Below are positions 2,618-56,305 of a stretch of DNA of 64,000 bases, in pieces. Each line of letters begins with the position of its first letter. The stretch's first letter is position 1. The stretch is from Candidatus Yanofskybacteria bacterium (GTDB taxonomy: Bacteria; Patescibacteriota; Minisyncoccia; 2-02-FULL-40-12; GWA2-44-9), in the NCBI GenBank assembly GCA_020852375.1, contig JADZAY010000019.1, positions 15,319 through 79,318 of the forward strand, read 5' to 3'. The position numbers and the translations under genes were made by a program. The notes under the pieces are model-generated. The model made no database searches. It was not told the DNA's origin and worked only from the letters and a program-made list of their open reading frames with translations.

Positions 2618-3037
2618 CTAGTGCACGCCGTGGCGCTCGAAGAATGCGCTGTATTTTTTATCTGAGAGGAGAATGTGGTTGCTGAGCCAGGTTATCGAAA
2701 AGTTTGCGAGTTCTTCCGCTAATACTTTCGTTTCTTCTGGGTTGGTCTCGAGCTGTGCGAGTAGTACCCGCACTTTGTCGCGGTAGTGGTCGTGCTCTCG
2801 GATATGCTCTGCGGTGTGCGGATAGGAAAGCTCATGAAAATACCGCTCCTCGGTCGTCAGGTGGTATACGGCATAGTGCTCAAGCTCGCGCGCGATCGCG
2901 ATACAATCCTCCGGCGCCATGTCGGGTCGCTCGATGAGGTCGATGAGGTCGTTCGTGATGCGAAAGAAGTTCTTGTGCTGCTCGTCGATCGATGCTACGC
3001 CGACGCTATATTCCTCTTTCCAGATGAATTTTTGCAT
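2618..3037 (-). CDS. Hemerythrin-like metal-binding protein of about 139 aa
   Basis: His and Glu residues are spaced as expected for a hemerythrin cation-binding domain (IDEQHKNFF, LEHYAVYHLTTEERYFHELSYPHTAEHIREHDHYRD). An ATG with the SD sequence GGAGGTGA lies 8 nt past the stop of the giant gene. The track ORF extends upstream to 3178, but the part beyond 3037 is a spurious overlap. Confidence 0.7.
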   Translation of the reverse strand: MQKFIWKEEYSVGVASIDEQHKNFFRITNDLIDLIERPDMAPEDCIAIARELEHYAVYHLTTEERYFHELSYPHTAEHIREHDHYRDKVRVLLAQLETNPEETKVLAEELANFSITWLSNHILLSDKKYSAFFERHGVH

Positions 3038-3044: not shown

Positions 3045-6000
3045 TCACCTCCGATACACCGGTACCTGCGAGAGCGCGGTGTAGGGTACGGGAGACTGTG
3101 CGTACCAATTGAACTCGTTGGAGTTGATGCAGAAGACCTTCTTGAAGAAGTCGGGGTCTTCGGAGACGGCCTGGGCACCGGTCAGGTTAATGTGGTGGAG
3201 CATCCCCGTATCCTCGCCGGTGACCTGAACGGCGTAGACCTCTTCGGCGTTCGTTTCGCAGTTGCGGAAAATGCCGGAAACGGGGAACGCGTCGCGGGTG
3301 GTCGGGGGAACCGTCTTCACGACGCTCCAGCCGCCGAGGTGGCCGTAGAAGCCGAAGATGACGGGGTTCAGGAAGAGGCGCTTGTAGCCGATCTCGTTCA
3401 CGATGTAGACGTCGGGGTCGGCAGAGTCGGTGGCACTGATGACGTCCCCTTCACGGAGACCAAGCTGGTCGGGGGGTGTCGGGGTGCCGCTGCCGGAGGG
3501 TGCAGGAGCTGGAGGCGTGCTGGGTTGTGGCGCAGGAGCCGGAGTGGGTGTGGGGGTGCTCGCATCGGAGGTGTAGGTGACTGTGCAGGTGTAGCCAACA
3601 CCGGAGAGTGCGAGGAGGTGACCTTGTGAGTCGCAGTCGCCCCCGAAGATGCGAGTGTAGCCGGTGAGCGGGGTTGCGCTTACGGTGTAGGAGCCGGCCA
3701 GGGCGGGATAGCCAACATTGGGGTCGATGAGACCAGTGTTCAAGGTGAGCTGAACATCCGCAGCGGTTGCTGAGCCGCCGGAGATGGCGAGGGTGACGCG
3801 GATGGAGCCGGCGGGGTTGGAGCCGCCGCCGGACGCAACGACGCAGGTGCTCGTGAAGCCGTTGAGGTTCAGTGTGCCGGCGGTGATCGTGCAGGTGCCG
3901 GAGGTGATGAAGTTGTCTTGTAGGTCCCACGAACCACCGGCGCCGTTGAAGGTGAGGTTGCTCGCGTAGGTCTTACCGGCGGATGTGATGAGTTTTGGAC
4001 CGGTGATAGCGGTGAAGGTGAGCGGTCCCGTGTAGGAGTTGGTCATGCCGGAGCCGAGCGTGATACCACCGGCGATGTTTGCCGAGCTCGCACCGCTCCA
4101 GGTGCCCGTGAAGCCGGAGAAGCTGAGCGAGCCAATAGTGGTGTTGGCGGTATTCCAAGTGAGCGCGGCGGAGGTGCCGGTGGATGGATCGGTGACATCG
4201 CCGAAATTCGCGCCGCCGTTGAGGTTTACGGTGCCACCGGTGTCTGAGGCCATGGTGACGGAGGCAAAAGCATCGGAGGATGCCGCAGAGATTGTCTTGG
4301 CAGAAGTGGAGGTGTCGGTGATAGAGAGCCTTGGAGCGCTGGTGTAGGTGAGGTTCGTGTTCGTGGCGGTGTTCCAGACAGTGCTGATGAAGGTGAGTGT
4401 CCAGATTCCGGAGCCGGGGGTGAGCGTTCGAACATTGCTGTTGGAGCTGGAAAAGGTTCCGGTGGTGACGTTCTTATTGTTCGCATCAAAGGTGCCCGCG
4501 GTGAGCGTGAGAGCGCCGGACGTTAAGACGAGATCATCTGCGAGTTGCAGCGTCCCACCGCTTCCATTCTCAACGAATGTTGCGCCGCCTCCAATTGCTA
4601 CCCCATTCGAAGTGATGATTTGTGTACCGGAGGTCGCGGTGAAGGTAAGTGTGTGGCTCGTCAGCGTCGCTGTCATTGTTGGCGCAAGTGTGAGGTTGCC
4701 GGAGACATTGAACGGAGCGCCGACACTTTCGCTCCAGGTGCCTGTGAAGCCCGTGAAATCCAGATTATGGATGGTTTGAGCGTTTCCGCTTCCGCCGGCT
4801 GTGAAGACTGAGCTGGTGCCTGTTGCCTGCACAGACACATCACCAAAGTTTGCCGGATTCGAGCCGGTGCTTGTGAGGTTCACGGTGCCCGCGGTGGTGG
4901 GGGTGATGGTCACGGAGGTGAACGTATCATTTGCCCCCGCGATAATCGTTTTTGAGGTTGTCGTTGCGTTCAGCACGCTTAAAATGGGCGGCGTGGTCAT
5001 CGTCAGGTTCGTATTCGTGGTGGTTGTCCAAATAGTCCCTGTCCCGGTGAGTGTCCAAGTTCCAGAGCCGGGAGTGATTGTTCGGACATTGCTATTCGAG
5101 CTAGAGAAGTTGGCGGTGCTGACGGTCTGGTTATTTGCATCGAATGTCCCAGCGGTGAGTGTAAGGGTGCCAGACACAGTTACCGCTCCGCCGGCGGTAA
5201 AGGTGCCTGCGGTAAGTGTGAAGGTTGCCGCAGAGACCGTGTTTCCGGCGGTGAACGTTCCGCCGTTGATGGCAAGCGTAGAGGACGTTGAAATGGCACC
5301 GGCGTTCGTAATGGTTCCTGAGGTGAGGGTGAGTGTGCTGGTCGTTGTGAACGCATCGGCGAAGTGGAGGGTCCCGCCGGTGCCGCTCTTGCTGAATGCG
5401 GATGCAAATGACTTTCCGGCGGAGGTAACCGTCTGGGTTCCGGAAGTTCCCGTAAACGTGAAGGCCCCGGTTTGGGTCCGGGTCATCCCTGTGCTCATCG
5501 TGAGGTCGCCCGTGAAGGTCATATTGTTGGCACCAGACCATGTGCCCGCGAATCCTGTGAAATCGAGACTGTTGAATGAAAATGTCGGAAAGCCGGCGCT
5601 CGTGAAAGCGATACTCGTACCCGAAGTGACGAACACGTCATGGAATGCGATTGTCGCGGCAGTGCCACCCGTGAATGTTCCAGCACCGGACATCGAGAAT
5701 TCGATATCGTTGTAGCATCCGGCGGCGACATTGCCCGCACTCATGGTCGGTGCGGCACCGGTGAACTTCAGACGTCCGCTGGAGGTACAGGTGATGTTGG
5801 CAGTCGTAGCCATCGTCCATGCGGAACCGGTTGCGGTGACCGTCCAGAGCCCGCTCCCCATCGTCAGCGTATGTGCGGTGGCGCTGTTTGAAGAGAAGCT
5901 CGCGATAGTGACATTCTGATTGTTTGCATCAAAAGTGCCAGCCGTCATGCTCAGTGCGCCTGTCGTGACAAGCGTATCCGCAAGCTGAACCGTGCCGCCA

Positions 6001-9000
6001 GCTCCGCTCACCGCTATTGCTGAAGCAAGAGAGAGTCCGTTCGTGGTGAGCACCTGAATACCCGAAGTAGCAATGAACGTGAGGGCACCCGTGCGAGTGA
6101 GGGTTATGCCAACCGGAAAGGTAATGCTATCGGAAAGATTGATGTTCCCCGCCCCTGCCCACGTCATTGTCGAAGAGAGCGTCACAGCTCCCGTCGTTGT
6201 CACCGTCCCGCCGGTCGTCCAGGTGCCGGTAAAGCCCGTAAGGTTGATGTTGCGCGCATTGGTGGTGGTGCAGCTGCTGGTGAAGGTGACGGCCGTAGAT
6301 GCTCCCGTGCCCGCGATGTTGATATCTCGGAATGTCGAGGTCGTACATGTGGCAGAAGAAAATGTGATCAATCCAGCGCTGCTCGTCGGGACCGTAAAGT
6401 CATTAAATGTGTTTGCCGCAATCGTGATCGTTTTTCCGGTCGTGCTCGTATCGGTCACGGTGAGCGTGCTGGTGTTCGCATTCAGCGTGAGGTTTGTACT
6501 GGTCTGAGTAGTCCATACCGATCCGGTACCGGTCAGCGACCAAGTCCCAGATCCCATCGTGATCGTCCGGGCATTGCTATTAGAGCTCGAGAATGACCCG
6601 AGATTTATGTTCTGATTGTTTGCATCAAAGATGCCGCTGGTGAGTGTCAGCGCGCCGGTTACCGTCAGCGTATCGGCAGGCGAGAGGGTGCCGGCGCCTG
6701 ATTTTGTAACGACAGGAAGCGAAATACTGTTCGAGGTGATGGTCTGCGTGCCTGAAGTCCCTGTGAATACGACGCCGCCGGTGTTGGTGCGGGTGAGTCC
6801 CACAGGGAGGGTGAGGCTTGAAGTCGACAATGTAATACTGCCGGTACTTGCCCACGTCATGGTTCCCGAGAGCGTGAGGGTTCCGTTGATGACGTTAAGG
6901 TTCGTGTTCTGCGTCCAGGTGCCCGTAAAGCCCGTGAAGTTTACATTATTGAACGTAAAACTATTGTTTGTTCCGCCGAATGTGAGTCCGGCGGATGTTC
7001 CCGTTGCCGCAACGGTAAGGTCGTGCAGAGAGACTCCACCGCTCGAGCCTCCACTAAAGGTCACGACTCCACCCGCAGCGGACGCGATGGAGACATCGTA
7101 AAAAACCGTAGCAGCGCTCGTGCCACCAGGAGAGAGCGTCTTTCCGGTGGCGCTTGTATCGGTGATGGAAATGGTACTCGTTCCCACGTCGAGGGTGAGG
7201 CCGGTTACGGTGGCAGTAGTCCAGATCGTTCCCGTTCCCGTGAGCGTCCACGTTCCGGAGCCCATCGTGAGCGCGCGGGTATTCGAGTTCGTGCTCGAAA
7301 GACTGCCCATCGTCAGGTTCTGATTGTTCGCATCAAGCGTTCCGCTGGTTAGAGTGACGGCTCCTGTTGTCACGAATGCATCGGCGAATGTCAGCGTTCC
7401 CCCCGCTCCTGATTTTGTGATGGCCGACGCGAGTGAAATGCCGTTCGAGGTGATGGTCTGTGTGCCGACTGTTGCGGAAAATGTGATACCTCCGGTAGTG
7501 GTGCGCGTGAGACCAATGGGAAGCGTGAGGTTCGACGTTGAAAGCGTGACGCCACCGGTACTTGCCCACGTCATGGTTCCCGAGAGTGTGAGGGTGCCGT
7601 TGATGACGGTTGGGCTGCTATTCGTCCAGGTGCCGGTGAAGCCGGTGAAATCTAAGTTGTTCACAGTGAGCCCCTGGTTTGTGGAAGCAAAGGCATACGC
7701 CGCCGAAGTACCGGTCGCAGCAACCGTGACGTTGTTCATGGTGCAACCGCCACTCGTACAACCGGAAACGGTAACCGATCCGGCCGTGCCGGAAGGAATC
7801 GATAGGTTGTACATAACAGTACCGCTTCCCGGGAAGGAAAGTGTTTTTGTGGTAGTGGTCGCATTGGTGACAGAAACCGTGCTGGTATTCACATTAAGGG
7901 TGAAATTTGTGCTGGTGGTAGCATCCCATACGGTGCCCACACTCGTGAGCGTCCACGTTCCCGAGCCCATAGATAAGGTGCGGGCGTTCGTGTTATTGCT
8001 CGAGAATATGCCCATCGTCAGGTTCTGGTTGTTCGCGTCGATGGTGCCGCTGGTCAGAGTCAAAGTCCCGGTTGTCACGAAGACATCGGCGAATGAGAGC
8101 GTTCCTCCAGCTCCTGACTTTGTGATTGCGCTCGTGAGGGTGTTCCCGTTTGAAGTAATGGTTTGGGTCCCGGAAGTCCCCGAAAACGCAATAGTCCCGG
8201 TGAAGGAGTTGGTGAGACCGATAGGAAGTGTCAGTCCGCTTGTTGAGAGGGTGATGGTGGCGCTGCCCGCCCAGGTCATGGTGCCGGAAAGCGTAAGGGT
8301 GCCCGCGACGGAAACCGTGCCGGAGCTGTGCGTCCAGGTGCCCGTAAAGCCGGTAAAGTCAAGGTTGTTGAACACATAGGCTACGTTTGTTGTGGCATAG
8401 GCGAGTTGAGCAGATGTACCTGTCGCGGCGACCGTGACGTTGTGGATTGCACACCCTCCGGAGGCGCAGCCAGAAAGCGTGACCGTACCACCGGCACCTG
8501 AGGGAATTGAAAGGTCGTATAAGAGCGTCGCCGTTGAGGAAAAAGCGAGAGTCTTTCCGGTGGTGCTCGAATCGGTGACGGAGACGGTGCTCGTCCCGAC
8601 ATTTAACGTCAGATTGGTTACCGTAGATGTGGACCAGATCGTTCCCGTTCCGGTGAGCGTCCAGGTGCCTGAGCCCATGTTGAGGGTGCGGGTGCCGGTT
8701 CCCGTACCACTAAACGTGCCCATCGTCGGACTGTAGGTCGCAAAATCGAGCGTGCCCGTGAAGGCGCCCATGGTAATAGAGGTGACGGTAGGGTCATAGG
8801 CAAGGGTAACTGTGCCACCACCGGAGGAACCGTCGAACGTGACGGTATCCGCAGCACCGGGGACCGATTGACCCCCCGCTCCTCCGGAAGTTGCCGCCCA
8901 GTGGGTGGTATCGGCGGCATCCCAGGTGCCGGTGCCACCGACCCAATAACGGGAAGCAGCCGAAGCTTCGTGCGCCGAAAGAAGGAGCGAGAGCGCAAAG

Positions 9001-9056
9001 CCGATGCCGAAGAGCGTGATGAATGTTTTGCGGCGCGCAAACATGCCGAATGACAA
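3045..9056 (-). CDS. Giant secreted cell-surface repeat protein, about 2000 aa. It has a signal peptide, about eight tandem Thr/Gly/Ser-rich beta-strand repeats of roughly 200 aa each (adhesin or autotransporter-passenger-like), a Pro/Thr linker, and a conserved 140-aa C-terminal domain.
   Basis: A single uninterrupted ORF. The N-terminus reads MFARRKTFITLFGIGFALSLLLSAHEASA, and the true start may be the ATG at 9044 or the TTG at 9056. The reiterated motifs include GSGTWTLT, NLDFTGFTGTWT, GTQTITSNG, ITKSGAGGTL and TSGTxDANNQN. The C-terminal domain (KRLFLNP, YGHLGG, FRNCETN, VTGED, LHH, FCINS) is shared with 50064..51161. Confidence 0.85.
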   Translation of the reverse strand: MSFGMFARRKTFITLFGIGFALSLLLSAHEASAASRYWVGGTGTWDAADTTHWAATSGGAGGQSVPGAADTVTFDGSSGGGTVTLAYDPTVTSITMGAFTGTLDFATYSPTMGTFSGTGTGTRTLNMGSGTWTLTGTGTIWSTSTVTNLTLNVGTSTVSVTDSSTTGKTLAFSSTATLLYDLSIPSGAGGTVTLSGCASGGCAIHNVTVAATGTSAQLAYATTNVAYVFNNLDFTGFTGTWTHSSGTVSVAGTLTLSGTMTWAGSATITLSTSGLTLPIGLTNSFTGTIAFSGTSGTQTITSNGNTLTSAITKSGAGGTLSFADVFVTTGTLTLTSGTIDANNQNLTMGIFSSNNTNARTLSMGSGTWTLTSVGTVWDATTSTNFTLNVNTSTVSVTNATTTTKTLSFPGSGTVMYNLSIPSGTAGSVTVSGCTSGGCTMNNVTVAATGTSAAYAFASTNQGLTVNNLDFTGFTGTWTNSSPTVINGTLTLSGTMTWASTGGVTLSTSNLTLPIGLTRTTTGGITFSATVGTQTITSNGISLASAITKSGAGGTLTFADAFVTTGAVTLTSGTLDANNQNLTMGSLSSTNSNTRALTMGSGTWTLTGTGTIWTTATVTGLTLDVGTSTISITDTSATGKTLSPGGTSAATVFYDVSIASAAGGVVTFSGGSSGGVSLHDLTVAATGTSAGLTFGGTNNSFTFNNVNFTGFTGTWTQNTNLNVINGTLTLSGTMTWASTGSITLSTSSLTLPVGLTRTNTGGVVFTGTSGTQTITSNSISLPVVTKSGAGTLSPADTLTVTGALTLTSGIFDANNQNINLGSFSSSNSNARTITMGSGTWSLTGTGSVWTTQTSTNLTLNANTSTLTVTDTSTTGKTITIAANTFNDFTVPTSSAGLITFSSATCTTSTFRDINIAGTGASTAVTFTSSCTTTNARNINLTGFTGTWTTGGTVTTTGAVTLSSTMTWAGAGNINLSDSITFPVGITLTRTGALTFIATSGIQVLTTNGLSLASAIAVSGAGGTVQLADTLVTTGALSMTAGTFDANNQNVTIASFSSNSATAHTLTMGSGLWTVTATGSAWTMATTANITCTSSGRLKFTGAAPTMSAGNVAAGCYNDIEFSMSGAGTFTGGTAATIAFHDVFVTSGTSIAFTSAGFPTFSFNSLDFTGFAGTWSGANNMTFTGDLTMSTGMTRTQTGAFTFTGTSGTQTVTSAGKSFASAFSKSGTGGTLHFADAFTTTSTLTLTSGTITNAGAISTSSTLAINGGTFTAGNTVSAATFTLTAGTFTAGGAVTVSGTLTLTAGTFDANNQTVSTANFSSSNSNVRTITPGSGTWTLTGTGTIWTTTTNTNLTMTTPPILSVLNATTTSKTIIAGANDTFTSVTITPTTAGTVNLTSTGSNPANFGDVSVQATGTSSVFTAGGSGNAQTIHNLDFTGFTGTWSESVGAPFNVSGNLTLAPTMTATLTSHTLTFTATSGTQIITSNGVAIGGGATFVENGSGGTLQLADDLVLTSGALTLTAGTFDANNKNVTTGTFSSSNSNVRTLTPGSGIWTLTFISTVWNTATNTNLTYTSAPRLSITDTSTSAKTISAASSDAFASVTMASDTGGTVNLNGGANFGDVTDPSTGTSAALTWNTANTTIGSLSFSGFTGTWSGASSANIAGGITLGSGMTNSYTGPLTFTAITGPKLITSAGKTYASNLTFNGAGGSWDLQDNFITSGTCTITAGTLNLNGFTSTCVVASGGGSNPAGSIRVTLAISGGSATAADVQLTLNTGLIDPNVGYPALAGSYTVSATPLTGYTRIFGGDCDSQGHLLALSGVGYTCTVTYTSDASTPTPTPAPAPQPSTPPAPAPSGSGTPTPPDQLGLREGDVISATDSADPDVYIVNEIGYKRLFLNPVIFGFYGHLGGWSVVKTVPPTTRDAFPVSGIFRNCETNAEEVYAVQVTGEDTGMLHHINLTGAQAVSEDPDFFKKVFCINSNEFNWYAQSPVPYTALSQVPVYRR

Positions 9057-14588: not shown

Positions 14589-15563
14589 ATGGCGCGATCG
14601 CATAACCTAATCCTTCTCGCGGCGCTCGGGGGCATATTGGGTGTTGGTCTTGTCGCGCTCGCCGCGCAAAATCGTTCGTTGCGCAGTCAGCTTGCGGCGC
14701 ACAGCGCCTCTAGCTCGTTTGAGCTTTTGAATCCGGTGAAGGCGCTGAAGATCAATCGGCACTTCATCATCGACTTCTCTGATCTTCGAAAGAGCTTCGA
14801 TCGAATTGTGAAGAAGTATCCCCAGAAAACGTACCTCTATTTCATGTATCTGAGCAATGGTGGCTGGGTTGGAGTGAACGAGCGGGATCAATTTGTTGCG
14901 GCGAGCCTCATCAAAGTTCCGCTCGCGATGGCATTCTATAAGGCGGTGGAAGATGGCCGTATCAATCTTTCCCAGGAATACGCACTCGCGGAGACCGATC
15001 TTGATGATGGATTCGGTGATCTGTATAAAGTCGGTGCCGGTAAGAGCTATTCCGCTCGTGACCTGCTCCGCATCATACTGTCTCGTTCGGATAACACCGC
15101 CATGCGCGCCGTGACGACTCTTCTGCGGAGGGTTGGTATCGATGATCCGCTCAGTGATGTGTACGCCGAGTTGGGGTGGGAGGTGTTGCCTCCGCTGGTC
15201 GCAAATGGAGATGCTTCGGGCATTAATTATTCGGAGATCAGTGTGAAAGTGCTCTCGAATATGCTTCTCGCACTCTATAATGCTACCTATATCAGCAGCG
15301 AACACTCGCAGGAGATCCTCAAGGATCTGAGCGAATCAGAATTTAATGATTCGATTCCTGGGGGGGTTCCCAATGGCACTATTGTTGCGCACAAGATAGG
15401 GGCTTCGGCAAATGACCAGACATTCTCCGACTGTGGCATCGTGTATGTTCCCGGAAGACCCTATCTCCTGTGTCTTGGCTCGAACGGAGGAGATCAGGAT
15501 CGGGCGAACCGTTTCATGGCGGAGGTTTCACGCGCGGTATTCGATTTTGTTACTACCCACTAA
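14589..15563 (+). CDS. Membrane-anchored serine hydrolase of the class A beta-lactamase / PBP-like family
   Basis: The SxxK motif is AASLIKVP, the SDN motif is SRSDNTA, and a KTG-like motif is HKIGAS. An N-terminal TM anchor is present. Confidence 0.65.
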   Translation: MARSHNLILLAALGGILGVGLVALAAQNRSLRSQLAAHSASSSFELLNPVKALKINRHFIIDFSDLRKSFDRIVKKYPQKTYLYFMYLSNGGWVGVNERDQFVAASLIKVPLAMAFYKAVEDGRINLSQEYALAETDLDDGFGDLYKVGAGKSYSARDLLRIILSRSDNTAMRAVTTLLRRVGIDDPLSDVYAELGWEVLPPLVANGDASGINYSEISVKVLSNMLLALYNATYISSEHSQEILKDLSESEFNDSIPGGVPNGTIVAHKIGASANDQTFSDCGIVYVPGRPYLLCLGSNGGDQDRANRFMAEVSRAVFDFVTTH

Positions 15564-17049: not shown

Positions 17050-17883
17050 ATGAGTCTTTTTGCGCGCACGGGTCTTATTCTACAGGGAGTTGCCATTTTT
17101 GCCTGCCTAATACTGGTGCTCGCGTGGCTTGTTCCCGATGATGCTCTCGGGTACATCGCGAGTTCCTCCTCGTTCATTCTTTTCGGAGGTGGAGTTGATA
17201 GCATCGCTGGGACGGGGTCTTCGTCGACGTTTTTCAATACGAGTGCGGGCGGCCAGGCTGTTGCAGGAGTCGCATCATCCTCATCGTTCATTGCATGTAA
17301 GGGCGCATTGTGCGATCAGCCGGCTGCCGGCACTCCCACGTCATTGACCCTTACCATCGAATCCGGCGGGACGGTGAGCTTCGGGACGCTGGGCTTTCAG
17401 TCCCGTGTGACCCGGACGACAAATCTCCGTATAGACACCACGAATGCAACGGGGTACCAGTTGAGTGCCGGGAGACAGCGTGCGATCGCAAACGTGACCC
17501 TTGCGTCAAGCGCGAATCCGGGGAGCGTCTACATTGACGATATCGGGGGCGGCATCGATGTGTTCGGTGGCCTTGGCGGTTCATGCGGTGCCGCGCAGTG
17601 GCCAGCTGCGTCGGGAGCCTCGACCGGTCTCGGGTTTACCGTATGGGCGGCGAGCATCAATAAAGACACGACGTGCTGGGGGGCCGGATCGACCGAAAGC
17701 GCGATCGAAAACCGCTATGCGGCATTGCAGGCGTCATCGGCTGCATCCGCATTCTTGAGCGCGACTTCGAATAGTCCGAACCCCTCATTTGCATCGGTGG
17801 GCTATAGCCTTGAGATCACGCAGCTTCAGCAGGCGACAGGGTATAGTGGGCAGGTCATCTTTACGGGAACGACTGCTCCATGA
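17050..17883 (+). CDS. Ser/Thr/Gly-rich membrane-anchored protein; paralogue A of the protein encoded at 20191..20958
   Basis: The protein has an N-terminal TM helix. It shares blocks with the 20191 protein: RAIANVTLAS.ANPGS, TGLGFTVWA, CWGAGS, YAALQASSAASA, and a C-terminal YSGQVIFTGTTAP. Its stop overlaps the Wzy_C gene start as ATGA. Confidence 0.6.
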   Translation: MSLFARTGLILQGVAIFACLILVLAWLVPDDALGYIASSSSFILFGGGVDSIAGTGSSSTFFNTSAGGQAVAGVASSSSFIACKGALCDQPAAGTPTSLTLTIESGGTVSFGTLGFQSRVTRTTNLRIDTTNATGYQLSAGRQRAIANVTLASSANPGSVYIDDIGGGIDVFGGLGGSCGAAQWPAASGASTGLGFTVWAASINKDTTCWGAGSTESAIENRYAALQASSAASAFLSATSNSPNPSFASVGYSLEITQLQQATGYSGQVIFTGTTAP

Positions 17884-20135
17884 CGCACGACGGCATCCAG
17901 GGCAGTGTGCAAGCGCTCGGGCTGATCGATCGAGTCCTCATACGGGTGATCCGAAGCGGCCTTTTCCTGACCGCGTTTATCCCGCTGGTCATTTTTCAGC
18001 GTACGTTTTCCCCGTTCTTCTTTGGAAAAGAAATACTCTTCCGCTTGTTGATCGAGCTTCTCGCGCCGCTCTATCTCTTCGTTGTCCTGCGTCATCCTGT
18101 CATGCGGCCGCCGCGTTCACTTCCGCTTTTGCTTCTGTGGGTGAGTGTTGCCGTTGCTATTATTGCGGGGCTTGCCAGCGCAAACCCGCAGCTCAGTTTT
18201 TTTGGGACCTGGGAGCGGATGGGCGGGGTGTTTACCCTCCTGCATGGCGCTCTGCTTGTGACTATGCTCTCTGGGATGTTCCAATCGCGAGGGGACTGGC
18301 GGACATTATTCGGATTATCGGTGGGAGTCGCGCTGGTATCAGCGTTGTACGGAATGCTCCAACTGACGACTATTCCGGGTATCGCGGGTGCGACGAGCAG
18401 GTTTCGAATCTTTGGGACGATTGGGAACCCTGCCGCTTTTGCGGGGTATCTTCTCGTAAATGTGTTTCTGGGACTCGCGCTTCTGCCGTCATCTTCGCTC
18501 CGCGCGCGAACTGCCATTGGTGTGAGCACGCTGGTGCTCGGCGGCGGCATCCTACTGAGTGCGGTCAGAGGCGCGGTAGCGGGCCTTATCGCCGGGCTTT
18601 GCTTTCTTGGATACCTGAAGTGGGGCGGCGTGAGCGCGCTGTTTCGGGGTCGAAGGATGGTCATGCTTGTTGTGGGGGCACTGCTGCTCGGTGGAGTGTT
18701 GTTCTTCTTTTCGAACACTGACCACTGGACTCGCCTTGTCCGATTCGATCTTTTCTGGGAGACGATCGGCCAGCGTCTGGTCGTTTGGTGGATGGGCATC
18801 CGCGGCGCCGCACAGCATCCGATGCTCGGGTGGGGACCAGAGCAGTTTCCGTCGCTGTACAGCGTCTGGTTCGATGCGCGCCTTTTTACGAACGCCCAAG
18901 GTGTCATATTCGATCGGGCACATAACATCATTGTCGATATCGCTTCGACGCAGGGGCTTATTGGTCTCACTGTGTATGCCGCGCTTCTGTGGGCCACATT
19001 CATTCGTCTCCCTGGCGTGCTGAAGGCGGGATTCGTGGCGGTTCTTGGTCACCTACTGTTCTTTTTCGATCTTCTTCCGACGGCGCTACTTGTTGGATAT
19101 CTCATCGCTTATGCGGCGCACCGGGGTGATAGCGCCCGGTGGCGGATGCCTACCGGGAAACGGGTGCAGGGGGTCAGTACGGTTGTTGTGGTAGCGCTTT
19201 CTGTTGGAGGATTGCTCCTGAACATCGGATCGCTTACCAGCAACCTCGCGGTGGCGCGCTCATATACCGCCTTCGCCACCGGGAATGGAGTGGATGGGAT
19301 TCGTTTCGGTGAGGTTGCGATGGGACGAGAACGGATGTTTTTGCAGGATGTTCGGAGAAAATACACTGAAGGTCTGGTTGGATATGCGTTTCGCGCCTCT
19401 CCGGAAGAGCGGGAGGCCATCGGCGGTTCTCTGAAAAATCTCCTCGGAGCGCTTCGGGAAGAGATTGATCATACGCCTGACGATTATGCCGGATACCTCT
19501 ATCTGTATAAAGCGTGCCGCGCGAATCGGATGCTCTTTTCGGATGCATACGGCGACAGTGCGTGTTCTCCTGATGTGCTCACTGAGGGGATACGGCGGTT
19601 ACCGCGGGCTCTTCCGCTCCAAGACGAGCAGTACAATGGCCTCATGGAGGCGGGCAAGTTTTCCGACGCGATTATCGTAGTATCAGGCATTCGCGCGGCA
19701 CTTGAGCAGCCGTCGTCCGAGACGTTGTTCATGCTTGGGGCTGCGCGTGTATCGATGGCTGTTGCGCGTGTGCCGCACGACCCTTCTGCCCTCCAAGAGG
19801 GGATGTGGGAGATCCAGTCCGCGATCGACGGCGGGTATCGAGATGCAGGAGCGGTGCAGGCGGCGGCTCAATTATTGGAGCGTTCTCGTGAATTCTCGTC
19901 GGAGCTCGCACTTTTTAGCGCGCTTGCCCGTTTCGAGCCGCGCTATCTGGTTCCGTTGGCGTATACGCATTTGATCATCGGAGAAAAGGACGCTGCGCAT
20001 CAAATAGCCGATCAAGCACTGGCGTTGCCTGACGGCGTCCTGAGCCCGGCCGGGTTTCAGGTGCTGGCAGAGCTCTATCGTCTTCTGGGGGATACTGCCG
20101 GCAGGAGCCGGGCATTTCTCCGGAGCACCCCATGA
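17880..20135 (+). CDS. O-antigen ligase / Wzy_C-domain polytopic membrane protein (PglL/PilO/WaaL-like glycosyl or oligosaccharyl transferase family) with a soluble C-terminal domain of about 330 aa
   Basis: Multiple TM helices are present. The hallmark motifs are RFRIFGTIGNPAAFAGYLL and the periplasmic loop GWGPEQF (the GxGxGxF pattern), along with R..VWWMG. Confidence 0.7.
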   Translation: MTHDGIQGSVQALGLIDRVLIRVIRSGLFLTAFIPLVIFQRTFSPFFFGKEILFRLLIELLAPLYLFVVLRHPVMRPPRSLPLLLLWVSVAVAIIAGLASANPQLSFFGTWERMGGVFTLLHGALLVTMLSGMFQSRGDWRTLFGLSVGVALVSALYGMLQLTTIPGIAGATSRFRIFGTIGNPAAFAGYLLVNVFLGLALLPSSSLRARTAIGVSTLVLGGGILLSAVRGAVAGLIAGLCFLGYLKWGGVSALFRGRRMVMLVVGALLLGGVLFFFSNTDHWTRLVRFDLFWETIGQRLVVWWMGIRGAAQHPMLGWGPEQFPSLYSVWFDARLFTNAQGVIFDRAHNIIVDIASTQGLIGLTVYAALLWATFIRLPGVLKAGFVAVLGHLLFFFDLLPTALLVGYLIAYAAHRGDSARWRMPTGKRVQGVSTVVVVALSVGGLLLNIGSLTSNLAVARSYTAFATGNGVDGIRFGEVAMGRERMFLQDVRRKYTEGLVGYAFRASPEEREAIGGSLKNLLGALREEIDHTPDDYAGYLYLYKACRANRMLFSDAYGDSACSPDVLTEGIRRLPRALPLQDEQYNGLMEAGKFSDAIIVVSGIRAALEQPSSETLFMLGAARVSMAVARVPHDPSALQEGMWEIQSAIDGGYRDAGAVQAAAQLLERSREFSSELALFSALARFEPRYLVPLAYTHLIIGEKDAAHQIADQALALPDGVLSPAGFQVLAELYRLLGDTAGRSRAFLRSTP

Positions 20136-21032: not shown

Positions 21033-21932
21033 ATGATGAGGTCCACGAGATTTTTGAGCGGCAGTATCGTTCTCTTCGCTGCTTTTTTGTGCGCATCATT
21101 TGCTGCCGCCGCTCCGGTCGGTGTTACCGTTGCTCCGATCCGTTATGCAGTGAATGTGGACCCTGGAGCATCGTATGAAGATGTCATTACGGTTGCGAAT
21201 CCGAACGATTTTGTCCTTCGGGTGCAACCAGAGTTTCAAGATTTCCGCGTGACCGATGGCAATACGATCCAGTGGGTTCCGTCCGATGTCGAGAACCCCT
21301 ATCGGATGGTCGATTGGATCGAGATCGATCGGAGCATTGTCACGCTGAAGCCCCACGAGGAGGCTCGAATTCCGTTCACCATCCGTGTTCCACGGGCGGC
21401 AACTGCCGGTGGGCGGTATGCCGCGATCTTTTTTACGGCGGTGCTGAACAACCAAGGGGAGAATGTTGGTGCAGTCCCTCGGGTCGGTGCTCTCGTGATC
21501 CTGAACGTGAACGGGGATCTTACGCGGACTGGGAATCTTACGTCTTTGGATATTCCTCGCTTTGTTGCTGGCGGTCCCGTGAGTATGAAGGTTGGGTATT
21601 TGAACACGGGAACTACGCATTATGAGAGCAATGTATCAGTCAGTATTCGGGGTCTCATTGGGAAGACCACCGTTGTTCAGGGGGAGCGGCGTTTCGTGTA
21701 CCCGAATATCGAGCGAACGATCACGGCGCAGTGGAGTCGAGCATTCCCGTTCGGCGTGTATCGTGTTACCGCAACGGCGGTTGATGGGAGTGGTGTTTCT
21801 CAAATAATGGAGCGTTGGGTGGTCGCGGTGCCGTTCCGTCTCGTGATACCGGCTGCGCTGATATTCTTCGCACTCTTCTTCGGACTGCGGTGGTTCCGAT
21901 CGAAATTTAAGATCGTACGAGCTTCGGTTTAG
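21033..21932 (+). CDS. Secreted surface protein with a signal peptide and a C-terminal TM anchor, about 300 aa
   Basis: The N-terminus is MMRSTRFLSGSIVLFAAFLCASFAAAAP. The C-terminal hydrophobic helix PAALIFFALFFGLRWFRSKFK is followed by basic residues. The middle appears beta-rich. Confidence 0.55.
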   Translation: MMRSTRFLSGSIVLFAAFLCASFAAAAPVGVTVAPIRYAVNVDPGASYEDVITVANPNDFVLRVQPEFQDFRVTDGNTIQWVPSDVENPYRMVDWIEIDRSIVTLKPHEEARIPFTIRVPRAATAGGRYAAIFFTAVLNNQGENVGAVPRVGALVILNVNGDLTRTGNLTSLDIPRFVAGGPVSMKVGYLNTGTTHYESNVSVSIRGLIGKTTVVQGERRFVYPNIERTITAQWSRAFPFGVYRVTATAVDGSGVSQIMERWVVAVPFRLVIPAALIFFALFFGLRWFRSKFKIVRASV

Positions 21933-22855
21933 TGTGTGGCTGTATGAATATCCTGGGGCGCACGATCACGGTCTGTGCAGTCATGTTTTTCGTGTCGGTT
22001 CCCGCTTTTGCTGCAACCGGGTCGCTTGATGTACGAGTGGTTCCATTTTCTCCGACGCCAACCCCATCGTCGACACCCACTCCGACGGCATCTCCGCTAT
22101 CTGGGGGGTCTGTGAGCGGAGACGTAAGTTGGAGTCGCATTGCGGCGATAGAGCTCAATGGTGTTGCGTTTCCGCGCGCGACCGTTCATCTGCTGAAGGA
22201 CGGCGTTGACGTCGCGCGAAGCGATGCGGACGACGAGGGGCGCTTTCGCATTGCACTATCGGGACTCGCGGGCGGGTCGTATCTGTTCGGTTTGACGGCA
22301 GTTGCGAATGACGGCACAAGAACCGATCCGTATTCGTTCGTAGCTATTCCCATTCTTGGATCCACGACTCATATATCGAATATCCTCCTTCCGCCTCTTG
22401 TCGTGGCGGAGGATAGCCAAGCGGCTGGCGGAACGGGGGCCTGGCTGCGGGGATGGACCGCCCCGGGAGCTCAGATCGAAGTAACGGTTGATGACGGTGT
22501 GTGGCAAGGCATCGCATTTGTCCATAATGACGGATCATACCGAGCTGAAGTTATTCCGAACGATCAACGTTCCGGTGAGCACGTGCTCCGCGTTCGGGCC
22601 ATCGTGGGGCGCATGGGGTCGCCGTCGTCTCGCGAGATCCGATTTGTGGTGGGCGAGGCGCTGCCTTCTGTGTGTGGTACAGGTGTGGACACGGCTGATA
22701 TTAATGATGACGGGAGGGTAGATCTGGTGGATTTTTCCATCCTATCTTTTTGGTACGAGAAACCGATCGATGCCGGGGCTCGTGCTGATCTGAATTGCGA
22801 CGGCTCGGTCACACTCGCCGACGTGAGTATATTGGCTTTCTTTTGGACGGGATGA
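21932..22855 (+). CDS. Secreted protein with a C-terminal type-I dockerin domain
   Basis: A signal peptide is present. Two calcium-binding dockerin repeats are visible: DINDDGRVDLVDFSIL and DLNCDGSVTLADVSIL. The stop overlaps the next start as ATGA. Confidence 0.65.
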   Translation: MCGCMNILGRTITVCAVMFFVSVPAFAATGSLDVRVVPFSPTPTPSSTPTPTASPLSGGSVSGDVSWSRIAAIELNGVAFPRATVHLLKDGVDVARSDADDEGRFRIALSGLAGGSYLFGLTAVANDGTRTDPYSFVAIPILGSTTHISNILLPPLVVAEDSQAAGGTGAWLRGWTAPGAQIEVTVDDGVWQGIAFVHNDGSYRAEVIPNDQRSGEHVLRVRAIVGRMGSPSSREIRFVVGEALPSVCGTGVDTADINDDGRVDLVDFSILSFWYEKPIDAGARADLNCDGSVTLADVSILAFFWTG

Positions 22856-40371: not shown

Positions 40372-42531
40372 CTACGGGCGCACCTCTTTATAGGATGGTA
40401 TGCCTTTGTTTACCTGGAATCCCTGTGAAGCGGCGCATGAATCGCCAGGGTTCATACCGCTTGTGGACACGCGAAGCGTCGCGGTGATCCCCGCAGGATC
40501 CGCATAGAGGTGGGCGATGATCCCGGTTCCCGGACTTTCCGAAGTGATCGTCCCATCGCCGAAATTCCACTCACGGGTGGTCGGAGTGAAGGCGCCGTAA
40601 TCGGTCGTGTCGGTGAACAGCGCGTCTTGGTCTGCGAATGGCGGTGTCGGATCTACTGTGAAGGTGATGGACGGGTATGGCCCTGGAGGGGTTGTGGCGG
40701 TCGCTGAGGATCCTGACCATGCACTGGGTGTGTCGGTGGCATCCCACACCATGACGCGCGCTCGGAACGTTGCGTTGTAGCTTAGTGGGTCGGTGGGGTG
40801 CGTCGTTCCGGTTGATGATATCTTCAGCGAATCATAGATCGGCGTGGCGAAGTTGAACGCGGGACCTGCTGCGATCTGCACGCGGTAGGCACTCTGTGCG
40901 CCAGCTCCTGGTGTGTATGTCCACGATACAGCCTGGCGTGGTGCTGTCCCTCCGCAGTAGTTCGGGGCGGTCATTTGTACCCCGGCCGCGACTGGCGGGG
41001 GGACCCCCGCGACCGTCACGGTCGACCGAGCTTCGGCGGACGGTGCGGTGCTTCGCTCGACGATGACTTTGGGCGTATAGGTCCCCGCGGCATAGGCATG
41101 CTGTGTGGTTGAGCGGGGAACCGTATTCACAGCATCGCACTTGTACCCGTTCGCATTTCCAGCGCAGGCTCCCGGGGTTGGCGCTGGGAGAGCTCCGCAG
41201 GCTGCTGATGCTACAGCAATGCTTGTGGTTGTGTTGGCGCAGTTCCACCAGAAGCTGTAGTTGATGGTTCCGGTGGCGGTTCCGCCGGGCGTTGCCTGCA
41301 GGGTTGAGTTCACCGGTGCGGTGCCCGTGTTTGGTGTTGCGGTGAGGGATACGGAGAGCGTCGGAGCGGGGGCGACCGTGATGGTCGCGGATCCGCATGC
41401 AGATCCGAACCATCCAACATTTTGCTCGAGCAATCGATATTGACCCGCGTATGAACCGGGAGCCGCGGGAGCGGTGATCGAAAGCGGTATGGTCATTGAT
41501 TGGCCGGGTGCCACGGATGCCATTGATAGGTCGCTTGTTTGTGGGAGGAGTGACGGCGCTGTAGGGGGCCACGGCCACAAGGAGACGTCGTAGTTTGCTG
41601 GCGTTAGCTGGGTCCAGGTGCTGGTGCCGGTGTTCTGGAATGTGACCGATGCCGGGACGGTTTGCCCTACGGTCATGGTCGTCGGGATCGTATGCCCGGT
41701 GCATAGCGCATCGTTCGTTCCGGTTGGTGGCGGGCTGTTTGGTATGGGGGCGCAGTCGAGTGAAAGATAGATCGGCTCGGTCCATCGTGTCCACGGTCGG
41801 AAATCGGTGCTTCCTACACAGTCATAGCCCGGGTTCGGGTTTGGGCCGCCCCAACCGGAGTGTATCGAATATTCGCCGGCACCGGCACAGACGCCGTTCT
41901 GGCAGAGGGCATTCATCTGGGTAGGGGTCGCGTCTCCTGTGCCCTGTCTCCCATTGCAGGTATATGGTCCGGGAGGGCAATAGAGTCCCCACTTGAGCGA
42001 TTGTACGGGGGATGTCTCGATGGTGATATCGGAATACGAGATATTATTGCACTGGCCAGCATTTCCTTCGGTGGTATCGTCGGGGGAGCTGCATCCACAG
42101 TCATTAGGGTAGTCGGTGTACCCATCATTGTCGTCGTCCTGTCCGTTCGAGCAAACTGCATTGCCCGGTGGAGGTGTGCCGTTAATTCGAAAGGTGATAC
42201 GATTGCTGCCCGTTGGTCGGATGCATGAACGAAGCTCGTCCTCTCCGTACAGCGAGAGATCGAACACTGTTCCGGGCCCGCCCGTGTAGGTCGTGTATAC
42301 CGTTCGGGAGACAGTGCCGTCTCCACCAGCGATTTCGCCGTCACCATTTCCGAAGTCAACTTCGCCATATACCGCTCCGGAGCCTATGACCTGCCACACG
42401 ATCTTCGCTTGTGTTCCGGAGGGTCCGGAGGTTGGGGTCACACTTAAGGAGCATGCGATGGCGTGTGCGGCGCGGGCGCCGACGAATTGCGCGGCGAGTA
42501 CGATGAAGGTGATGAGGAGGAAGCGTTTCAT
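40372..42531 (-). CDS. Secreted PKD-domain protein of 719 aa
   Basis: A signal peptide is present. The Cys-rich N-terminal part contains a DDDNDGYTDYPND motif. Ig-like repeats carry the PKD hallmark REWNFGDGT. Confidence 0.7.
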   Translation of the reverse strand: MKRFLLITFIVLAAQFVGARAAHAIACSLSVTPTSGPSGTQAKIVWQVIGSGAVYGEVDFGNGDGEIAGGDGTVSRTVYTTYTGGPGTVFDLSLYGEDELRSCIRPTGSNRITFRINGTPPPGNAVCSNGQDDDNDGYTDYPNDCGCSSPDDTTEGNAGQCNNISYSDITIETSPVQSLKWGLYCPPGPYTCNGRQGTGDATPTQMNALCQNGVCAGAGEYSIHSGWGGPNPNPGYDCVGSTDFRPWTRWTEPIYLSLDCAPIPNSPPPTGTNDALCTGHTIPTTMTVGQTVPASVTFQNTGTSTWTQLTPANYDVSLWPWPPTAPSLLPQTSDLSMASVAPGQSMTIPLSITAPAAPGSYAGQYRLLEQNVGWFGSACGSATITVAPAPTLSVSLTATPNTGTAPVNSTLQATPGGTATGTINYSFWWNCANTTTSIAVASAACGALPAPTPGACAGNANGYKCDAVNTVPRSTTQHAYAAGTYTPKVIVERSTAPSAEARSTVTVAGVPPPVAAGVQMTAPNYCGGTAPRQAVSWTYTPGAGAQSAYRVQIAAGPAFNFATPIYDSLKISSTGTTHPTDPLSYNATFRARVMVWDATDTPSAWSGSSATATTPPGPYPSITFTVDPTPPFADQDALFTDTTDYGAFTPTTREWNFGDGTITSESPGTGIIAHLYADPAGITATLRVSTSGMNPGDSCAASQGFQVNKGIPSYKEVRP

Positions 42532-50063: not shown

Positions 50064-51161
50064 TTAGTAGGTCGGGATGCCGTGGCGGTAGATGGTGCCG
50101 AATGTCGTTCCGTTGATGACGACGTCGTATTGTCCTACTGGAGCGGACGCGAGATCGAGAACTGCTCCAGATGAGAATGGCCGTGTTATCTGAACACACG
50201 CTCCGCTGTTCGGACTGACCACTGCCGATGCGGAGACGCCGATGAGAAATTTCCACCCGACTCGTCCGACGGTCACCGGGTCAAGCGTGTAGCACGGGGT
50301 GGGGAGATACCCGGAGAATGTGACCAGTGCTGATGACTGATAAGTGCTGAGTGTCGGGATCTGCGCGCTGGTGACGGTAGCCTGTTGCGAGATGGTGGTC
50401 GTGGTCGGCGTTGGAGTTGGGCACACGAGGACCGGGTCGCAAGGGGCGCGAATACACTGCACCTGCTGGTAGTAGCAGCCCGGAGGAGGTGTTGGCGTAG
50501 TCCCCGGGCACCACCCTTCAACGGGTTCCGGAATGCTACACGATGGTGTTGCGTCGAGGCATACGGGGCGAACTTGGCATGCGCGGCGGAAGTACTGCGG
50601 GATGTCGGCAATACGGGTGTAGGGCGTGATGCTCTTGGGGTAGTAGTCGTCTTCGCGCGAGTTGATGCAGAACACTTTATCAAAGAAGCGGCCATCCTCC
50701 GCACTTGCCTGATCGCCGGTCATTTGCACATGGTGCAGGACGCCATTATCCTCACCGGTCACTTCGGTTGCCCAAACTTTTTGCTCGTTCGTCTCGCAGT
50801 TGCGGAACAATCCGGAGGTTACGAACGAATCGCGAACTGCTGCGGTGACCTGGTGAACCTTTGCGTATCCGCCAAGGTGGCCGTACATACTGAAAATTGC
50901 GGGATTCAGGAAAAGTCGTTTGAATCCGTTATAGTCGCCATAGTTTGCACCGGGTGTCGCGTAGCCTGTGAACCCCTTGAGCTTGATAATAAAGATATCC
51001 GGATCCCCAGCGCTCTGGTTCGCCGAGATGAGATCACCGTCATGGAGCGGGGTGCCGAAGATGTCGACCGTTGCAGGCGGAACGGCGGCGGCGGGGTGTA
51101 CTGCAATGGTGACGATGCTGGCAATGCCGAGCATGAGACCCACGAGGAGGAGTTTTTTCAT
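50064..51161 (-). CDS. Secreted protein of about 365 aa. A signal peptide is followed by a conserved domain of about 140 aa shared with the C-terminus of the giant protein, and then by a Cys-rich, Pro/Thr-rich C-terminal half.
   Basis: The N-terminus is MKKLLLVGLMLGIASIVTIAVHPAAA. The shared-domain blocks are KRLFLNPAIFSMYGHLGG, FRNCETN, VTGEDNG, LHH, FFDKVFCINS and PYT. Confidence 0.65.
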   Translation of the reverse strand: MKKLLLVGLMLGIASIVTIAVHPAAAVPPATVDIFGTPLHDGDLISANQSAGDPDIFIIKLKGFTGYATPGANYGDYNGFKRLFLNPAIFSMYGHLGGYAKVHQVTAAVRDSFVTSGLFRNCETNEQKVWATEVTGEDNGVLHHVQMTGDQASAEDGRFFDKVFCINSREDDYYPKSITPYTRIADIPQYFRRACQVRPVCLDATPSCSIPEPVEGWCPGTTPTPPPGCYYQQVQCIRAPCDPVLVCPTPTPTTTTISQQATVTSAQIPTLSTYQSSALVTFSGYLPTPCYTLDPVTVGRVGWKFLIGVSASAVVSPNSGACVQITRPFSSGAVLDLASAPVGQYDVVINGTTFGTIYRHGIPTY

Positions 51162-51217
51162 ATACCAGTAGTATACGGGCATACCGAGGGCTCACAAGGT
51201 TGTCGGTGGACAATAAA

Positions 51218-53858: not shown

Positions 53859-54176
53859 CTACTCCCAAAAAATGAGTACAAGAGACGCAACGCCGAACAC
53901 GAACCCGATGAGCTGTGTGCGGGTGACGGTTTCGTTGTACATGCCTACACCGATTAACACGGCAAGAAGCGCCGATACGACCGAGAAAATGACGGCTCCG
54001 CGACCAAGGCCGGAGCCGTTGTGGAGTGCGAACAGCCAGAATGTATTTGCTGCGAGATATGCGGCGAGTGCGCCGGCCGCAAGAAGCGAGCCGCCAACCA
54101 GCGACCATTTTTTCGCCACGATATCAGCGACCAATTCAAAGAATATGAGAATGCCGAGCGGAAGGAGCCATTTCAT
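53859..54176 (-). CDS. Small 4-TM membrane protein of the DMT/SMR-like family (ArnE/EamA-like)
   Basis: A hydrophobic protein of 105 aa whose stop overlaps the eno start region. Confidence 0.5.
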   Translation of the reverse strand: MKWLLPLGILIFFELVADIVAKKWSLVGGSLLAAGALAAYLAANTFWLFALHNGSGLGRGAVIFSVVSALLAVLIGVGMYNETVTRTQLIGFVFGVASLVLIFWE

Positions 54177-55417: not shown

Positions 55418-55441
55418 GTGTGTTGATTTTAGCATACTCGT

Positions 55442-55777
55442 GTGGTAGAGAAGAGCGTGTGGAGGTGGAGAGTGGACATACTTCGCGACGCCGGTTTTCG
55501 GGAGCGAGCTGTTACGCGGACGCGGAAGCTCGTCGAAGCGGAGATCAGCTCCATTCGCTCGGCGAACTGCCAGCAGAATGCGCAAGCGCACTTCGACGCG
55601 ATCTGGGGCATCCTCGAGGCGGCGTTGCGGCTTACGCTTCTCCCGCACATCGAAAAGAGAGACATCCTGGAGCTGCGCTCTCAGCTGACCCCGTGTGTCG
55701 GCCCGATGTTCATGCTGGGGATGTTCCACGAGGCGGGGGAGCTGACGGCCCGCCATGTGACGAGCATTCTGCCCTAG
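55442..55777 (+). CDS. Hypothetical protein of 111 aa
   Basis: An ORF followed by a strong terminator. I recognise no motif. Confidence 0.35.
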   Translation: MVEKSVWRWRVDILRDAGFRERAVTRTRKLVEAEISSIRSANCQQNAQAHFDAIWGILEAALRLTLLPHIEKRDILELRSQLTPCVGPMFMLGMFHEAGELTARHVTSILP

Positions 55778-55783
55778 CAATAC

Positions 55784-55815
55784 GGCCCGGAAACCACTGT
55801 GTTCCGGGCCTTTTC
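55784..55815 (+). terminator. Rho-independent terminator GGCCCGGAA-N9-TTCCGGGCC followed by TTTTCG...TTTTTT
   Basis: A perfect 9-bp stem with a T-rich tail. Confidence 0.55.
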
Positions 55816-55990
55816 GCACCCCTTGCTTTTTTGTTCGGACCGTGCTATACTTCAATTCAGCGTAGGTATCTCGGCAGCCAGTCGCCTCGTGCGAAGGGTC
55901 TCGACGGGAGGTCGCCCTCACGCAACATACGTGTTTTGTACCGGACCGCGTAACGATATCGTTGCTCGGGACGCACAAAGCGCAGAAGAA

Positions 55991-56287
55991 ATGGCGAACA
56001 AGCTTTACATCGGCAACCTGCCTTACAGCACGACCGGTGAAGAGTTGCAGCAGCAGTTCTCGCAGGCTGGCCAGGTCTCTGAAGCCGTCGTTATGATGGA
56101 CAAGATGACCGGTCGTTCCCGCGGGTTCGGCTTCGTCACCATGGCATCCGATGAGGATGCACAGAAGGCCATTGAGATGTTCAATGGTAAGGACTTCGGC
56201 GGCCGCGCAATCGTGGTCAATGAAGCCCGTCCGATGGAGCAGCGCGCTCCTCGCTCTGACCGTGGTGGCTTCGGTGGCGGATACTAA
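55991..56287 (+). CDS. RRM-type RNA-binding protein of 98 aa, glycine-rich at the C-terminus
   Basis: The RNP-2 motif is LYIGNL and the RNP-1 motif is RGFGFVTM. About 190 nt of leader lie upstream of the ATG at 55991. Confidence 0.8.
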   Translation: MANKLYIGNLPYSTTGEELQQQFSQAGQVSEAVVMMDKMTGRSRGFGFVTMASDEDAQKAIEMFNGKDFGGRAIVVNEARPMEQRAPRSDRGGFGGGY

Positions 56288-56305
56288 TCCGTACCGACTA
56301 CTCAA

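Follow-up and report, generated by a model that had tools for sequence, protein, structure and literature searches.

A giant Thr/Gly-rich protein of Candidatus Yanofskybacteria with a predicted beta-helix rod and a conserved 140-residue C-terminal module

The window analysed here is a stretch of 64,000 nucleotides from a Candidatus Yanofskybacteria genome (assembly GCA_020852375.1, contig JADZAY010000019.1, positions 15,319 to 79,318 of the forward strand); its TypA is 100% identical to MCC6934749.1 from a metagenome-assembled genome of the same group. One open reading frame (ORF) on the minus strand spans 3045..9056. Counted from the TTG at 9056, it has 2,003 codons and its translation opens LSFGMFARRK. 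The ATG at 9044 is the probable start codon and gives a precursor of 1,999 amino acids (aa) with a mass of roughly 197 kDa; the stop is the TGA at 3047-3045. The original prediction, made from the letters alone, had described a giant Thr/Gly-rich repeat protein of about 2000 residues, and the single ORF and its composition (T 22.1%, G 12.7%, S 11.7%, Glu 0.6%, with an acidic pI) bear this out. The giant protein is absent from protein collections by exact look-up, though its neighbours TypA and hemerythrin are present. The precursor is organised as follows, with U1 to U7 denoting the full repeat units.

3045..9044, minus strand: whole gene, 1,999-aa precursor
8958..9044, minus strand: Sec-type signal peptide, aa 1-29, MFARRKTFITLFGIGFALSLLLSAHEASA/AS, from the sequence and a hydropathy scan
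8676..8957, minus strand: N-terminal beta-helix cap or half unit, aa 30-123, SRYWVGGTGTWD...
7968..8675, minus strand: U1, aa 124-359
7263..7967, minus strand: U2, aa 360-594
6555..7262, minus strand: U3, aa 595-830
5859..6554, minus strand: U4, aa 831-1062
5070..5858, minus strand: U5, aa 1063-1325, with a 56-aa insert of short TLTxGTF coils
4416..5069, minus strand: U6, aa 1326-1543
3768..4415, minus strand: U7, aa 1544-1759, the most diverged unit and the end of the helix
3567..3767, minus strand: small Cys-pair sandwich between U7 and the linker
3468..3566, minus strand: Pro/Thr-rich linker of 33 aa, aa 1827-1859, predicted to be disordered (predicted local distance difference test, pLDDT, <50)
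3048..3467, minus strand: C-terminal 140-aa alpha/beta domain, aa 1860-1999

In the hydropathy scan the signal peptide is the sole transmembrane (TM)-like segment of the giant protein, and a regular-expression scan found no LPXTG-like motif; the C-terminal end reads ...SQVPVYRR. All 14 cysteines fall into seven close pairs, one pair per structural element (193/198, 429/434, 900/925, 1086/1110, 1718/1734, 1804/1820, and 1929/1972 in protein positions), the last pair being the two invariant cysteines of the 140-aa domain. The pairing is consistent with disulfides and with an extracellular protein. Searched as a whole, the giant protein gave no family at E ≤ 1 in Pfam and NCBIfam (Beta_helix and PbH1-type models included), no match in a PDB sequence search and a single weak match, of unknown function, in PHROGs.

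Each of the seven full units opens with GSGxW (at aa 124, 360, 595, 831, 1063, 1326, and 1544), and the series stops at aa 1759. The units are 216-263 aa long, with pairwise protein identities of 36-70%. Smith-Waterman scores of unit against unit lie 20-62 standard deviations above composition-preserving shuffles; as these shuffles contain the same residues, the similarity is not a composition effect. Residues 30-123 align with the second half of a unit (z 6.2 against U1). The repeats first seen in the sequence are therefore real, but their number and length (about eight, of some 200 aa) are corrected to seven longer units plus the cap or half unit, and the final 240 aa are no repeat but a different three-part tail. 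The same holds for the ordered string of motifs that had been ascribed to every repeat. The motifs exist, but only GSGxW is found in all seven units; TNLTLN occurs in six, GTQTITSNG and ITKSGAGG in five each, NNLDFTGFTGTW and GTLTLSGTMT in four each, and SGCxSGGC in two by the strict and three by a relaxed pattern. TSGTxDANNQN is present in five units, and a sixth match lies within U7, off the aligned unit-end position. Most simply, GSGTW, FTGFTGTW, and DANNQN would be turn and core-stacking elements of the helix rather than ligand sites.

At the DNA level, identity between units does not exceed 70%, the longest exact word in common is 32 nt and most pairs give no blastn match. Tandem Repeats Finder reported nothing, the longest period searched (500 nt) being below the unit of about 700 nt. 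As the DNA copies are old and diverged, a variable repeat number, which had been thought probable, is unlikely, and so is assembly collapse. Antisense ORFs of at least 100 aa are present across the giant gene and had been put down to the DNA repeats. Stop codons in the two open antisense frames have a frequency of 1.6-1.75%, which is not unusual for long genes in this window of 58% GC (0.5-2.9% in the others), so these ORFs reflect composition and gene length and not the repeats.

The fold was modelled with AlphaFold2 for U1-U2, two of the 7.5 units, from a 12-row double-unit alignment of the giant protein and its homologues. The model (pLDDT 91.6, predicted template-modelling score 0.87) consists entirely of short beta-strands, about 24 per unit, which continue unbroken through the unit boundary. 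According to this high-confidence prediction, U1-U2 fold into a single, uninterrupted right-handed parallel beta-helix, with the stacked three-strand coils of the pectin-lyase-like class, and at the level of the fold the beta-helix or beta-solenoid proposed for the repeats is borne out by the model. Matches to the model, all at 7-13% identity, include capsule depolymerases, polygalacturonase, and PL6 lyases, as well as Hbp, Pet, pertactin, Fap2, UpaB, Ag43, EtpA, HxuA, and the Gram-positive adhesin SRRP. About 24 strands per unit would correspond to roughly 8-10 coils; assuming 0.48 nm per coil, the whole helix of ~1,730 residues (cap and seven units) would form a single rod with an estimated length of ~30-40 nm.

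A profile of the seven units was used to search 1.84 billion cluster representatives (50%-identity clusters). With E-value limits of 1e-3, 1e-10, and 1e-30 it matched 3,878, 1,938, and 399 proteins, respectively, some of them with up to 5,758 aa and 45 matched stretches. Few names are attached to them in the source databases ('beta strand repeat-containing protein', 'hypothetical protein' and the automatic 'fibronectin-binding autotransporter adhesin'), and we found no description of the unit family in the literature. Positions 1-70 and about 100-234 of the profile hidden Markov model are kept in the homologues; the middle is variable. The giant protein belongs to this family by its tandem, profile-matching units preceded by a YWVGGTGxW cap. 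The YWVGG cap is the conserved start of the helix across the family, phage members included, and is common to the giant protein, the family members P0001, P0002, P0003, P0006, and P0007, and the phage protein of locus L081. Among 241 family members, 133 begin at the cap without a signal peptide and 19 look Sec-exported.

The unit is also encoded on viral contigs of IMG/VR, where 235 stretches are 31-50% identical to it, with tblastn E-values as low as 5e-24 (calculated against the candidate stretches alone). Phage unit proteins of 1,373-2,288 aa are located at the following positions.

L081:3319-7440: phage unit protein
L083:2293-7092: phage unit protein
L160:9001-15867: phage unit protein

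The proteins of L081 and L083 (1,373 and 1,599 aa) are encoded between genes of PHROG tail-fibre and virion structural families, and P0007 (2,288 aa) is located between BppL_N, terminase, and portal genes on a T5-like contig of 27.6 kb. In the viral-contig proteins L081 and P0005, read from their start, the YWVGG cap is preceded by an N-terminal adaptor (MAIAFVAPGAV... and MAISFVAAGTV..., respectively). The tip at the end of L081 and P0007 reads ...NTGWIF. Judged from these sequences, the unit appears to be largely a building block of phage tail fibres, with the giant protein in a cellular, secreted minority. Among other members, P0008 has a Pretoxin-HINT-like region and FG-GAP repeats besides its beta-helix units, and P0004 has 16 YDG domains; the unit is used in very different giant-protein architectures.

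The closest full-length relative is P0002 (1,774 aa, GCA_034680565.1), with 43% identity over 63% of the query. An insert like that of U5 is visible in it as short TLTxGT coils ahead of ...GTLNANNKN. P0002 and P0046 are the closest homologues with a signal peptide, and both carry two C-terminal PG_binding_1 domains (51 and 99 bits; cut-off 23) in the position that the 140-aa domain occupies in the giant protein. The genome of P0002 is only distantly related (TGT 45% identical), and around P0002 there is no conserved synteny with the giant-gene locus and no adjacent hemerythrin.

The C-terminal 140-aa domain has no Pfam or NCBIfam match and nothing significant by Foldseek against the PDB or by PDB profile search, and no description of it was found in the literature. 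Its motif is GYKRLFLNP...IFxFYGHLGG...FRNCE...TGED...FFKKVFCINxNEFxWY. The copy in the giant protein is recognised by hmmsearch with a domain E-value of 1.3e-76, is 62-71% identical to 30 representatives and has all 40 invariant columns; across more than 400 clusters the domain is 57-72% identical. A scan of 185,579 species genomes gave 167 copies, often several per genome. Among the 80 copies listed of these 167, 79 are from Patescibacteria (Yanofskybacteria, Paceibacterota, Parcubacteria, Spechtbacteria, and Minisyncoccia), and the remaining one is on a 3-kb contig labelled Planctomycetota. By this distribution the module appears to be Patescibacteria-specific.

The partners of the module include cohesin, SH3_3, and an ice-binding-like domain, Beta_helix with InlB B-repeats, and arrays of Ig, fn3, and LTD domains. 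In L002 and L003, which contain the same sandwich domain as the giant protein, Laminin_G_3 and a beta-propeller are tied to the module by the same sandwich-plus-linker cassette. The module may be C-terminal, internal, or N-terminal, and this independence of position argues against a C-terminal sorting signal. The other members of the beta-helix family that were examined, 241 in number, all lack it, which makes the combination of helix and module unusual. The window holds a second copy.

50064..51182, minus strand: second module copy, N-terminal in a secreted protein of 372 aa

In this protein, which has no Pfam match, the module (about aa 45-200, with a 17-aa insertion) is followed by a region rich in Cys, Pro, and Thr and then by a small C-terminal domain.

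About 25 loci encode a protein of 1,130-1,260 aa whose signal or TM segment leads straight into the module; a linker comes next, and then about 1,000 aa that are beta-rich and have no Pfam match. Loci with such proteins, here of 1,107-1,260 aa, are listed below.

Module-first proteins: L008, L009, L011, L013-L015, L017, L024-L026, L028-L030, L034, L038
Further module-first proteins: L041, L042, L044, L046, L054, L056, L057, L077
Examples: L014:7878-11549, L034:7878-11660

Patescibacterial S-layer proteins, as reported in a preprint on S-layer prediction, have 1,131-1,274 aa and six Ig-like domains, and their C-terminus is the distal tip of hexagonal pyramids (10.1101/2024.05.28.596244), which places the N-terminus next to the cell. 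The size and the taxa of the module-first proteins match, and they are probably these six-Ig-domain S-layer proteins. If so, the module is their cell-proximal anchor.

Taken together, our data suggest that the giant protein is probably a Sec-exported, envelope-anchored attachment fibre of Candidatus Yanofskybacteria, a member of the Patescibacteria or Candidate Phyla Radiation. The signal peptide would direct Sec export to the cell surface, where the 140-aa module would dock on some conserved envelope component of the producing cell itself, be it a wall polymer, the S-layer, or a partner protein. In this arrangement the C-terminus is cell-proximal, with the Pro/Thr linker spanning the envelope, the sandwich and the linker acting as spacers, and the N-terminal cap forming the distal tip. 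The rigid beta-helix rod, built from the structural unit of phage tail fibres, would mediate contact with, or attachment to, a host cell or surface. Such a role is suggested by what this fold usually does, by the homologous receptor-binding fibres of phages and by the fact that cultivated Patescibacteria live as episymbionts (PMC11623550). Binding of the module to the envelope of the producer is proposed from its sequence context, namely the varied passengers, the independence of position, the probable S-layer proteins, and the replacement by PG_binding_1. Several points weigh against this interpretation. The module has invariant His, Cys, Glu, and Asp, and its identity of 60-70% between deep lineages exceeds what is usual for wall-binding modules; an enzyme or a protein-docking domain would explain both just as well. 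SH3_3 follows the module in about half of the proteins and could itself be the wall anchor. Finally, phage fibres are attached by their N-terminus, a polarity opposite to the one proposed here.

The main rival reverses the roles of the two ends. The 140-aa domain would be the working end, an enzyme or a receptor-binding head at the wall of a host or prey, and the helix its shaft; the protein would be attached to the producer otherwise, or released. The very high conservation of the domain, with invariant H158, C185, E186, E200, D201, H206, and C228, would suit such a function, as would the SH3_3 domain of wall-binding type that trails the module in many small proteins and the distal C-terminus of the homologous phage fibres. 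Yet in the probable S-layer proteins the module is N-terminal, directly after the signal or TM segment, with the opposite end distal; its passengers are themselves binding domains (LamG, cohesin, Ig, and beta-propeller); the equivalent position in P0002 and P0046 holds a known peptidoglycan-binding domain; and no catalytic family was detected in the 140-aa domain. We regard this alternative as unlikely, but less so than the other three. The giant protein could instead be a lattice-forming beta-helix component of an S-layer or sheath and not a projecting fibre. Pseudomonadota, Verrucomicrobiota, and cyanobacteria are described as having S-layer proteins in which a beta-helix is joined to an anchoring domain (10.1101/2024.05.28.596244), and the module is common to the giant protein and the probable Patescibacterial S-layer proteins. 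The Patescibacterial S-layer proteins reported to date are, however, made of Ig-like domains, and the candidate of one Yanofskybacteria species is a 692-aa protein with three of them (10.1101/2024.05.28.596244), whereas the body of the giant protein is a beta-helix in place of six or three Ig-like lattice domains. The lack of the module in the other 241 family members also indicates that such a protein is not a conserved envelope component. A lattice role is therefore improbable.

The relationship to phage fibres raises the question of whether the gene is a tail-fibre gene, or the remnant of one, within a prophage. This is very improbable. The giant protein carries a Sec signal peptide and ends in a cellular tail cassette that is also found on non-phage surface proteins; of the phage members' virion adaptor at the N-terminus and GWxF tip at the C-terminus it has neither. 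Its neighbours are a hemerythrin and ordinary genes; of ten neighbouring proteins compared with PHROGs, none had a structural, packaging, or lysis match (two gave weak matches, to a function-unknown family and a methyltransferase), and a prophage location was rejected on this ground. The last alternative is that the helix binds ice, or some other ordered surface, with its flat Thr-rich faces, making the protein an ice- or mineral-binding adhesin; we give it the least weight of all.

A wider version of the attachment-fibre interpretation can be put forward tentatively. The 140-aa domain might be a Patescibacteria-wide envelope-docking module, the counterpart of SLH or LysM, common to S-layer and displayed proteins, and the phage-tail-fibre-type helix might have been recruited by an episymbiont as a host-contact fibre. 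If this is true, the surface proteome of a given Patescibacterium could be listed in one step by means of the module, and the fibre would be a candidate determinant of host specificity. A beta-helical surface fibre alone is an ordinary object; the newer element is the tail module and not the repeats. Patescibacteria account for a large part of bacterial diversity. Those in cultivation are all attached to other microbes, and the molecules of host contact beyond type IV pili are described as largely unknown (PMC11623550). In another Patescibacterium, large proteins bearing signal peptides have been proposed as candidates for host interaction (PMC13059738). The present locus yields a candidate contact fibre for the group, and its large, unannotated beta-helix unit family links cellular surface proteins with phage tail fibres. 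The conserved, lineage-specific module is a mark of many secreted proteins, among them probably the S-layer protein. Hundreds of 'hypothetical' surface proteins could be annotated with a Pfam-style model of it, which would also provide a handle for pull-downs and surface display in the few systems that can be cultivated.

The surroundings of the giant gene contain the following features.

2618..3037, minus strand: hemerythrin-family gene, 139 aa, identical to MCC6934705.1
9992..14587, plus strand: four consecutive genes (522, 210, 524, and 270 aa), directly upstream of and divergent from the giant gene region
14589..15563, plus strand: class A beta-lactamase-like protein (PF13354, E 1.8e-40)
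17880..20135, plus strand: Wzy_C/O-antigen-ligase-like membrane protein
21932..22855, plus strand: probable surface protein with a weak match to a Ca2+-stabilised adhesin repeat
40372..42531, minus strand: probable surface protein, 719 aa, with Ig-like and PKD domains
54173..56827, minus strand: ORF of 884 aa with enolase domains at aa 476-880 only, the N-terminal 475 aa having no match
60216..61580, minus strand: PMT-type protein O-mannosyltransferase (PF02366 and PF16192)

The hemerythrin gene starts 7 nt past the stop of the giant gene, its AGGTGA Shine-Dalgarno sequence overlaps the last codons of the giant gene, and the two are probably co-transcribed. Upstream of the giant gene there is a small Zn-ribbon ORF, ended by a terminator-like hairpin at 9349-9369. 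A promoter scan gave no signal above shuffles, and scanning the window for tRNAs and Rfam families gave no match. No secretion partner is encoded among the neighbours of the giant gene. The four-gene block has no Pfam or NCBIfam match, and one of its genes has a weak PHROG match of unknown function. The window is rich in envelope proteins. The PMT-type and Wzy_C-type proteins could be putative O-glycosylation enzymes for Thr-rich or Pro/Thr-rich surface proteins. In the 884-aa enolase ORF, the GTG start is placed too far upstream or else the protein is an unusual fusion.

Among known systems, phage tail fibres and tailspikes resemble the giant protein in their homologous repeat units (31-50% identity), the N-terminal cap, the tandem arrangement of units of 185-250 aa and the richness in Thr, Gly, and Ser; an example is a fibre protein of 1,373 aa from IMG/VR UViG_3300027754_000179. 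A signal peptide is missing from the phage members, which start with the cap or with a virion adaptor and in many cases end in a GWxF tip, whereas the giant protein has a Sec signal peptide, a sandwich-linker-module tail and a non-phage neighbourhood. It thus falls outside the tail-fibre subclass, in which a protein without signal peptide is encoded in a phage structural module. P0002 shares with the giant protein the junction of signal peptide and cap, the TLTxGT-coil insert resembling that of U5 and a non-repeat C-terminal tail after a linker; P0002 and P0046 differ in having a C-terminal PF01471 domain and not the Patescibacteria-specific one.

The giant protein would work like a passenger of an autotransporter or a two-partner secretion (TPS) system or like a Gram-positive beta-solenoid adhesin, but the defining features of these families are missing. 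It is only 7-13% identical to autotransporter passengers and TPS exoproteins (pertactin, Hbp, Vag8, Ag43, Fap2, and EtpA), and the group of the organism is described with an S-layer-covered envelope (10.1101/2024.05.28.596244). The autotransporter-like character that the original prediction had suggested does not hold: the relatives in sequence are phage tail fibres and 'beta strand repeat-containing proteins' and not passengers. The type Va assignment was rejected; a beta-helical passenger is present, but there is no Pfam match to a C-terminal 12-stranded barrel (PF03797), and the C-terminus is the 140-aa alpha/beta domain in place of a beta-barrel translocator. A TpsA protein was likewise rejected, there being no TPS domain (PF05860) and, among the neighbouring genes (the hemerythrin, the Zn-ribbon ORF, and unannotated genes), no TpsB. 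Unlike the SRRP of L. reuteri (5nxk) and LPXTG proteins, the giant protein has neither an LPXTG motif nor a hydrophobic, TM-type segment at its C-terminus, and sortase anchoring was rejected. Any anchoring would be non-covalent, through the 140-aa module. The module is comparable with SLH, LysM, CWB2, and PG_binding_1, each of which is found as one module on many unrelated extracellular proteins per genome, at either end and beside linkers. It differs from them in having no similarity of sequence or fold, in its single copy of 140 aa, in its 60-70% identity, and in its restriction to Patescibacteria.

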